This document shows, one piece after another, positions 3,006 to 3,248 of a stretch of DNA of 4,849 nucleotides; the first letter of the stretch is position 1, and each line of letters begins with the position of its first letter. The translations under genes were made by a program, and so were the position numbers. Source of the stretch: a virus (taxonomy: Duplodnaviria > Heunggongvirae > Uroviricota > Caudoviricetes); IMG/VR virus record IMGVR_UViG_2778261389_000001, positions 1 through 4,849 of that record; one strand, written 5' to 3'. A model generated the notes under the pieces. That model was not told the DNA's origin, ran no database searches, and was given only the letters and a program-made list of their open reading frames with translations.

Positions 3006-3248
3006 CTATAGTCCCCCATTTGGATTGAACAGCTGAAAGGTACGGTTTTCGCCTTCCTGCGTTGATACATCGCGGAATGTTGTCACATACCACTCGATCC
3101 ATTCGTTGGCCTGCTTCATCGTCCAGTTCCAGTTAACCTTGCTCAGTTCCTGGACAAACCGCTGTGTGGTGACAGTCTGCCGGCCATTCGGTTCCTGCCG
3201 TATCGAAGCATACCAGGCCATTTCAATATCGCTGCGTCGTGGCATCAT
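3006..3248 (-). CDS. Small Trp-rich protein of unknown function (80 aa), first gene of the LexA-box operon, translationally coupled to the UmuD'-like gene
   Basis: ATGATG start at 3243-3248 preceded by a GAGAGGG ribosome-binding site; the track ORF 3006-3317 begins 23 codons further upstream, inside the promoter and LexA box. No family recognised by eye; its size and position before a UmuD homolog recall impC of plasmid impCAB operons (unverified). Confidence 0.65.
   Translation of the reverse strand: MMPRRSDIEMAWYASIRQEPNGRQTVTTQRFVQELSKVNWNWTMKQANEWIEWYVTTFRDVSTQEGENRTFQLFNPNGGL

Follow-up and report, generated by a model that had tools for sequence, protein, structure and literature searches.

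Since the description of P1 humD it has been clear that phages and plasmids can carry orphan UmuD'-type genes. In the impCAB operon (TP110/IncI plasmids), ImpC is encoded upstream of ImpA (UmuD-like) and ImpB (UmuC-like). ImpC is DinI-like, and is strongly SOS-induced together with ImpA (PMC12211044). The current study concerns a comparable arrangement in a stretch of 4,849 nucleotides (nt), referred to below as the window, which comprises positions 1 to 4,849 of the virus record IMGVR_UViG_2778261389_000001 (Caudoviricetes). A short open reading frame (ORF), whose product is here named p80, precedes a HumD-type UmuD' gene and faces a dinI-like gene across two LexA boxes (Table 1). The p80-humD pair is an SOS translesion-synthesis accessory cassette of a known sort (cf. 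impCAB), of which the first cistron was previously uncharacterised. It is tentatively proposed, short of calling it probable, that p80 could be a protein-binding accessory or modulator of the mobile-element DNA polymerase V (Pol V; UmuD'/UmuC/RecA*) pathway and not a DNA-reading regulator.

The two systems agree in being putatively LexA-repressed operons of mobile elements, with a small first cistron (~80 amino acids, aa) before a UmuD-type gene. In this positional sense the resemblance to impC-impA remarked on in the first-pass annotation stands, but it does not extend to homology. ImpC is DinI-like and p80 is not, which rules out p80 as an ImpC homologue: p80 gave no hit to the Pfam DinI model (PF06183) at E<=1, and hhalign of p80 against the DinI-like protein of the window returned a probability of 0.2%. 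In the window a predicted winged helix occupies the first cistron and the DinI homologue is a separate, divergent gene, which for the same reason is the counterpart of impC. The p80-humD arrangement differs further in that its UmuD-type gene is pre-truncated to the UmuD' form and is usually unaccompanied by a polymerase gene. The first-pass annotation had described the polymerase as missing. None lies beside humD, but this is not anomalous; it is the usual state of HumD-type genes, since those of P1 and N15 also stand without one.

The HumD of the window is 70% identical, without gaps, to P1 HumD, which shares its length of 129 aa and its MGFPSPA start, and it matches the HumD equivalog model NF051876 with 221.5 bits (cutoff 120) over residues 1-129 of 129. 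The MGFPSPA start aligns with the cleavage-site Gly25 of UmuD. In an alignment with UmuD and LexA the catalytic Ser is gone, SGDSM having become SRSHF, and all partners of p80 likewise start at the cleavage-site Gly and have lost the catalytic Ser. They fall into a long class of 125-130 aa, in which SGDSM is replaced, and a short class of 104-107 aa, in which the loop carrying the catalytic Ser is deleted outright. The N-terminal arm, GFPSPAxDYxExR, is nearly invariant in both. Short-class partners were found in loci L003, L007, L009, L012, L014, L017, L021, L024, L029, L031, L032 and L037; one is labelled 'repressor protein CI' in Erwinia phage Midgardsormr38.

According to its database record, P1 HumD functionally complements E. 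coli UmuD'. P1 humD and N15 gene 26 are alike in having a LexA box upstream and no adjacent polymerase, but differ from the window in that no ORF lies between the LexA box and humD. In Escherichia coli Nissle 1917 (L129, 2501-3211), and in the majority of the 91 E. coli genomes that have the region, dinI lies opposite humD with a LexA box and no p80. The S24 gene of Nissle 1917 is annotated with 148 aa, its start being probably over-extended.

Reading the minus strand from 3248 to 3006 gives the 80-aa translation implied by the first-pass annotation. Translation probably begins at the second ATG (3245), giving a product of 79 aa, because the homologues begin MPR and the Shine-Dalgarno (SD) sequence GAGAGGG is better spaced for this ATG. 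A block of five Trp residues had been described; the block, NWNWTMKQANEWIEWY, holds four, and the fifth Trp of the protein is W12. Between one and five Trp residues occur in members of the family, with W50 invariant and W40 nearly so, and Trp-richness is thus no family trait.

As had been supposed, p80 belongs to no recognisable family of known role. No matching model was found in Pfam or NCBIfam, and the Pfam matches WVELL and SAM_PNT (E~0.09, below the cutoff) were disregarded. There is a full-length match to phrog_3893 (E=1e-37; p80 residues 2-79 on profile positions 1-78 of 79), a PHROG annotated as of unknown function. A large protein database contains 105 homologues, which are 49-100% identical where they align. 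Those from Citrobacter share 92-96% identity, and the remainder come from Klebsiella, Enterobacter, Raoultella, Salmonella, Cedecea, Pantoea and further sources. All named source organisms are Enterobacterales (~40 species). An exhaustive profile search of 1.84 billion representatives retrieved only 176 relatives, almost all of 50-120 aa; p80 therefore represents a small family. Many homologues carry the source label 'DNA polymerase V' and others 'hypothetical protein'. The former is an annotation artefact of the neighbourhood, as a protein of just ~80 aa can owe this label only to the adjacent gene. The searched literature, including that on IncX3 plasmids and the Salmonella SOS regulon, yielded no functional or expression data on the gene.

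The conservation asked of the ORF by the earlier annotation is present and lies far beyond chance. The median ratio of nonsynonymous to synonymous substitution rates (dN/dS) is 0.10 (786 pairs from 41 alleles), and 19 residues are invariant in a 42-sequence alignment (A2). On these sequence comparisons, p80 is a genuine gene under purifying selection.

The most distant p80-like genes (41-48% identity) include a 117-aa gene in 'Candidatus Pantoea bathycoeliae' (L042/L043), with a similar case in L039. At ~80-640 nt after the distant 117-aa gene there is an ORF of 187-252 aa starting MKIRFLSANEHKLAEVRKILEP, whose product we take to resemble Ham1/RdgB-type nucleotide pyrophosphatases. In phage 2G7b (L130, 2501-2701; similar records H47-H61), a 66-aa ORF labelled 'tail fiber assembly protein' shares only residues 1-37 of p80. 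The phrog_2341 relatives, which share these 37 residues, were rejected as p80 kin; they look like chimeric recombination scars, 2G7b being the one checked.

The TAG stop of p80 had been placed 2 nt before the UmuD'-like ATG and the two genes had been described as translationally coupled. The spacer is indeed 'cc', with the ATG at 3003, and a neighbourhood survey, which took in 40 loci of different species together with 80 viral contigs, bears out the predicted coupling. A HumD-like ORF starting MGF(P/Q/V)SPA lies at -4 to +4 nt from the p80 stop in 71 of 72 viral contigs and 25 of 39 species loci, and about four (four or five) further species loci hold frameshifted or decayed humD copies (bringing the total to ~29/39). 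An SD-like GGAGG/GGGGG is found 4-16 nt before the humD start in every one of the 99 linked loci. In all 99 it is formed by the codons for the C-terminal Asn-Gly-Gly of p80 (AAY GGA GGN). The distant homologue in HK225, which has no humD, also lacks the NGG tail. In addition, clusters of p80 track the class of the S24 partner, and the distances within the two families correlate (r=0.76). Co-production of p80 and HumD may be expected from this layout.

A junction of this kind, with the humD SD inside the last codons of the ORF and a stop-start distance of -4 to +4 nt, could also be that of a mere leader, whose translation controls humD and whose product has no function. This is scarcely credible for a gene with the dN/dS value given above, a confidently predicted fold and 19 residues invariant in a family conserved over ~40 species. 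Moreover, p80 survives without humD, and the humD genes of P1 and N15 are expressed without a leader.

The assignment of p80 as the first cistron of a LexA-box operon is upheld, as two boxes overlap its promoter. The 75-nt p80-dinI intergenic region holds both. The sigma-70-like promoter of the p80-humD operon, located by a consensus scan only, matches at 9 of 12 hexamer positions; its -35 element is overlapped by box A and its -10 element by box B. Box A keeps its position, 57-58 nt from the p80 start, in the Citrobacter/E. coli clade, which carries the second box and whose perfect box lay at 57-60 nt in the survey. Box B occurs in a perfect CTG-N10-CAG version, CTGTGTTTTTATGCAG, in the close relative L052, and sits where other clades have one perfect box alone, at 26-36 nt before the p80 start. 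In those clades the promoter is TTGAT(C/A)-N17-(A/T)-rich -10, abutting the LexA box. In our reading, both boxes would serve the p80 promoter and the mirror-image dinI promoter. A perfect CTG-N10-CAG box lies no more than 90 nt upstream of p80 in 34 of 39 genome loci and 75 of 80 viral loci (109/119). Thus p80-humD is presumably under LexA control in vivo.

The AlphaFold2 model of p80 has a mean pLDDT (predicted local distance difference test) of 90.9, and confidently predicts a small winged helix with the topology a1-b1-a2-a3-b2-wing-b3. In its topology and its likeness to solved winged-helix domains, the model is that of a winged helix. A Foldseek search of the model against the PDB gave nothing significant, and a fold search of BFVD returned only the p80 family itself. 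Searches by sequence for relatives of solved structure gave only spurious 14-residue matches to designed WD40 repeats. The small winged-helix co-regulators PapI and PefI show 13% identity, a generic fold match from which no membership is claimed; their context, fimbrial phase variation, differs from that of p80.

A winged helix invites the reading of p80 as a DNA-binding regulator. It could work alone, as an SOS-induced transcription factor or autoregulator, or supply the DNA-binding half of a two-piece, non-cleavable LexA/CI-like repressor in which the HumD-like S24 domain would provide for dimerisation. The p80/humD gene boundary falls exactly at the LexA/UmuD cleavage position. Against this reading, the charges of the recognition helix and of the wing range from neutral to acidic throughout the family: among 87 unique sequences, the wing carries a charge of -1 to -2 in 82 and helix 3 a charge of -1 or 0 in 83, and the net charge of the protein is centred on 0. 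The basic or polar recognition helix and wing expected of a DNA-binding winged helix were thus not found in these sequences. Upstream of the surveyed p80 loci there is no conserved motif, and hence no candidate operator, besides the LexA box, the TTGAT(C/A) -35 element and the A/T-rich -10 element.

An origin of p80 from the N-terminal domain of LexA was rejected: hhalign against LexA residues 1-85 gave a probability of 0.2%, and there was no Pfam hit to LexA_DNA_bind or HTH models at E<=1. Further, the reading-frame relation across the p80/humD junction is not conserved, and no natural full-length fusion was found. The metagenomic 'fusions' P0137, P0169, P0227, P0238 and P0245 each join a frameshifted p80 to a MGFPSPA HumD-like sequence, and are most likely assembly or frameshift artefacts and not natural LexA-like proteins. 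A DNA-binding role, in either form, is therefore improbable. It is rather unlikely, too, that p80 represents a new class of SOS-induced winged-helix factor in physical control of Pol V on mobile elements, either as a trans-acting 'pro-domain' or adaptor of the UmuD' mimic, replacing RecA*-dependent cleavage timing, or as part of a two-piece non-cleavable LexA-like regulator with a dead S24 domain. In that event, as IncX3 blaNDM plasmids of worldwide distribution carry the pair, a common backbone of resistance plasmids would be tied to stress-induced mutagenesis.

Homology between the window and 63 related loci (e.g. L005, L006, L047-L101) begins exactly at the humD stop and ends at ~3544, ~20 nt before the dinI stop. 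These sharp limits indicate that humD, p80, the boxes and dinI form a discrete mosaic cassette. By tblastn, p80 was found in 53 phage records, among them HK225, mEp390, HK140, Ayreon and Klebsiella, Erwinia, Cronobacter and Pantoea phages, and in 1,097 plasmid records, 955 of them from plasmids with a prediction of conjugative transfer. The cassette is not confined to prophages, since most sequenced copies are borne by conjugative plasmids.

The plasmid carriers are mainly of ~46 kb and mostly of the IncX3 blaNDM type. In a 46,161-bp IncX3 blaNDM-5 plasmid the order is ISKox3, p80 (79 aa, 'hypothetical protein'), an S24 gene cut by IS26, and blaNDM-5. The 'delta-umuD' of IncX3 blaNDM-5 plasmids is accordingly the HumD-like partner truncated by IS26 (L137, NZ_KU761328.1, pNDM5, 5004-5602). 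In pNDM5, ISKox3 lies ~100 nt upstream of p80 and possibly cuts it off from its promoter. IncFIC and IncX3/IncY plasmids carry intact p80-humD pairs, preceded at a distance of 34 nt by a perfect LexA box. The plasmid cassette also adjoins a divergent gene for a zincin-like metallopeptidase.

LexA-controlled antirepressors of temperate phages, namely Tum (186), GfoA/GftA (Gifsy) and AntC (N15), are linked to dinI homologues; the Gifsy order is LexA box-dinI-antirepressor-irsA, and Tum is an antirepressor-DinI fusion (PMC3121763). As a small protein expressed from a LexA-box promoter, adjoining a dinI homologue at a lambdoid prophage edge, p80 could be suspected of triggering prophage induction in the same way. 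It differs from these antirepressors in its abundance on plasmids, with ~1,000 copies on conjugative plasmids that have no phage repressor, and in its coupling to humD, a conserved partner that is not a repressor. In the two carrier phages checked the repressors are long CI/LexA-type proteins (257 aa in HK225; 217 aa, labelled 'LexA family', in Midgardsormr38). A Gifsy-type antirepressor was also rejected on similarity, as hhalign of p80 against Gifsy-2 GftA (L138, 2465-2683) gave 0.2%, and no PHROG annotated as an antirepressor matched p80. An antirepressor function is thus very improbable. P1 Lxr, a divergent 190-aa gene product without similarity, was likewise rejected as a homologue of p80.

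A polymerase gene is occasionally found in the neighbourhood of p80. In one long-read assembly (L126, 7840-9400), a LexA box and p80 are followed, through a GTGATG junction and with no humD, by a UmuC-like gene (Pfam IMS). In the L134/L135 lineage (L134, 6001-6530) p80 precedes a decayed umuC, and in a viral contig (L082, 10425-10649) a umuC remnant follows p80-humD. These cases hint at an ancestral three-gene p80-humD-umuC operon.

The proposal of an accessory or modulator in the Pol V pathway is favoured because the recurrent neighbours HumD, UmuC and DinI are all RecA*/Pol V-related, p80 tracks its partner at the correlation given above, and the conserved surface is acidic. DNA damage would lead to LexA cleavage and so to de-repression of the face-to-face p80-humD and dinI promoters. 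Ribosomes ending p80 could then re-initiate on humD by way of the SD in the last Gly-Gly codons, so that p80 and HumD would be made together. The invariant acidic wing and the C-terminal half of p80 would contact a conserved component of the mutasome, which could be HumD/UmuD' through its invariant N-terminal arm, UmuC or the RecA* filament. Such binding may tune the use of the pre-activated UmuD' mimic, following the logic of ImpC/DinI in impCAB or of DdrR with UmuDAb, with an unrelated fold. Which protein p80 would bind, and in which sense it would act, are inferences.

DdrR binds UmuDAb in Acinetobacter, and gp7 of phage GIL01 binds LexA, in each case modifying its activity (PMC11332147 and references 3 and 4 therein). 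These pairs, likened to p80-HumD by their description, also involve a small protein beside or acting on an S24-family protein, and are by analogy the closest functional precedent for p80. They differ in that UmuDAb and LexA retain DNA-binding N-terminal domains and act as repressors, whereas HumD is a UmuD' form without such a domain.

Several observations weigh against the proposed role. The first-pass annotation had suggested a functional pairing of p80 with the UmuD'-like protein; an obligatory pairing is not supported, as each gene occurs without the other and p80 can lie directly before umuC. P1, N15, E. coli Nissle and most E. coli copies have humD without p80. Conversely, HK225 and several Erwinia/Kalamiella loci have p80 without humD: in three of the latter (L028, L033 and L036) p80 stands alone, with a terminator-like hairpin directly after it in L028, and in HK225 dinI lies opposite the p80 homologue, which is followed by an invertase gene. 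Adjacent genes are expected to be co-inherited even if their products do not interact, and there are only a few examples of p80 with umuC, in sequence that is noisy or decayed. Further, p80 has diverged less across genera than the S24 protein with which it is paired (mean distance 0.32 versus 0.55), a pattern that a conserved host target would explain no less well than HumD itself.

The main rival to the proposal, because each gene can stand alone and p80 is the more conserved of the two, is that p80 is an independent SOS effector with a conserved host factor as its target. It might, for instance, dampen or prolong the SOS response, or protect the element during entry or induction, and co-regulation would then be the sole reason for its place in the humD operon. 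That humD works without p80 in P1 and N15 is consistent with this. So is the position of plasmid copies beside the metallopeptidase gene, together with the report of umuCD homologues at the boundary of the anti-defence islands in plasmid leading regions (PMC11541004). An independent effector is nevertheless judged unlikely, in view of the tight, SD-embedded coupling conserved in ~100 loci and the finding that the sole recurrent neighbours are Pol V/RecA*-related genes. In addition, none of the PADLOC defence-system hidden Markov models matched p80.

Right of the flagellin gene, the window represents a prophage end, comprising humD, p80, the dinI-like gene and tail-fibre genes (Table 1). The hairpin downstream of humD is a possible bidirectional terminator marking the end of the cassette. 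The flagellin gene lies between the IS1 InsA ORF and, ~380 nt away, the prophage end, and no divergent fliD-like gene was seen next to it within the window. The flagellin locus may be an extra or a horizontally acquired one, or the prophage may have integrated beside fliC. Nothing suggests that the two spacer ORFs are genes.

Table 1. Features of the window; complementary-strand signals are given in the direction of reading
Feature	Positions	Strand	Remarks
IS1 InsA ORF	51-326	-	
Flagellin gene	603-2231	-	542 aa; Flagellin_N/C
Spacer ORF	2424-2621	+	65 aa; no Pfam match
G+C-rich hairpin	2582-2597		17 nt past humD stop; T-run on + side, A-run on operon side
HumD-type UmuD' gene	2614-3003	-	129 aa; Peptidase_S24; starts MGFPSPA
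Mosaic cassette humD-p80-LexA boxes-dinI	2614-3544		87-92% nt identity with 63 loci; flanks differ
Coupling junction	3003-3017	-	SD GGGGGA 3017-3012, TAG 3008-3006, 'cc', humD ATG from 3003
p80 coding sequence	3006-3248	-	80 aa from ATG 3248
p80 SD	3259-3253	-	GAGAGGG; read from sequence
Candidate dinI promoter		+	-35 TTGAAT 3260-3265, -10 TATAAA 3283-3288, SD AAGAGG 3309-3314; sequence reading
LexA box B	3265-3284		TACTGTGTTTTTATCCGGTA on - strand; 15/20; one half-site CCG; overlaps p80 -10
Sigma-70-like promoter, p80-humD operon	3281-3310	-	-35 TTTACT 3310-3305, 18-nt spacer, -10 TATACT 3286-3281
LexA box A	3289-3308		TACTGTATATCCATCCAGTA; CTG-N10-CAG; 17/20 to consensus; just downstream of dinI -10
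Divergent dinI-like gene	3324-3566	+	80 aa; Pfam DinI 66.4 bits; shares both LexA boxes
Spacer ORF	3637-3819	-	60 aa; no Pfam match
Tail-fibre assembly gene	3962-4411	-	Tail-fibre C-terminus also in window

To our knowledge, the restraint of pre-activated UmuD' has so far been without an explanation. In the current study, many such UmuD' genes were found to come with a conserved, coupled and uncharacterised partner, predicted to be a winged helix, behind LexA boxes. The prophages that carry the cassette span at least 40 Enterobacterales species, and ~1,100 sequenced plasmids have it as well, the classic IncX3 blaNDM-5 backbone among them. If p80 does not modulate Pol V or RecA*, it is still a well-defined and easily testable orphan SOS gene. 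If it does, it would provide a new handle on the stress-induced mutagenesis of resistance plasmids.

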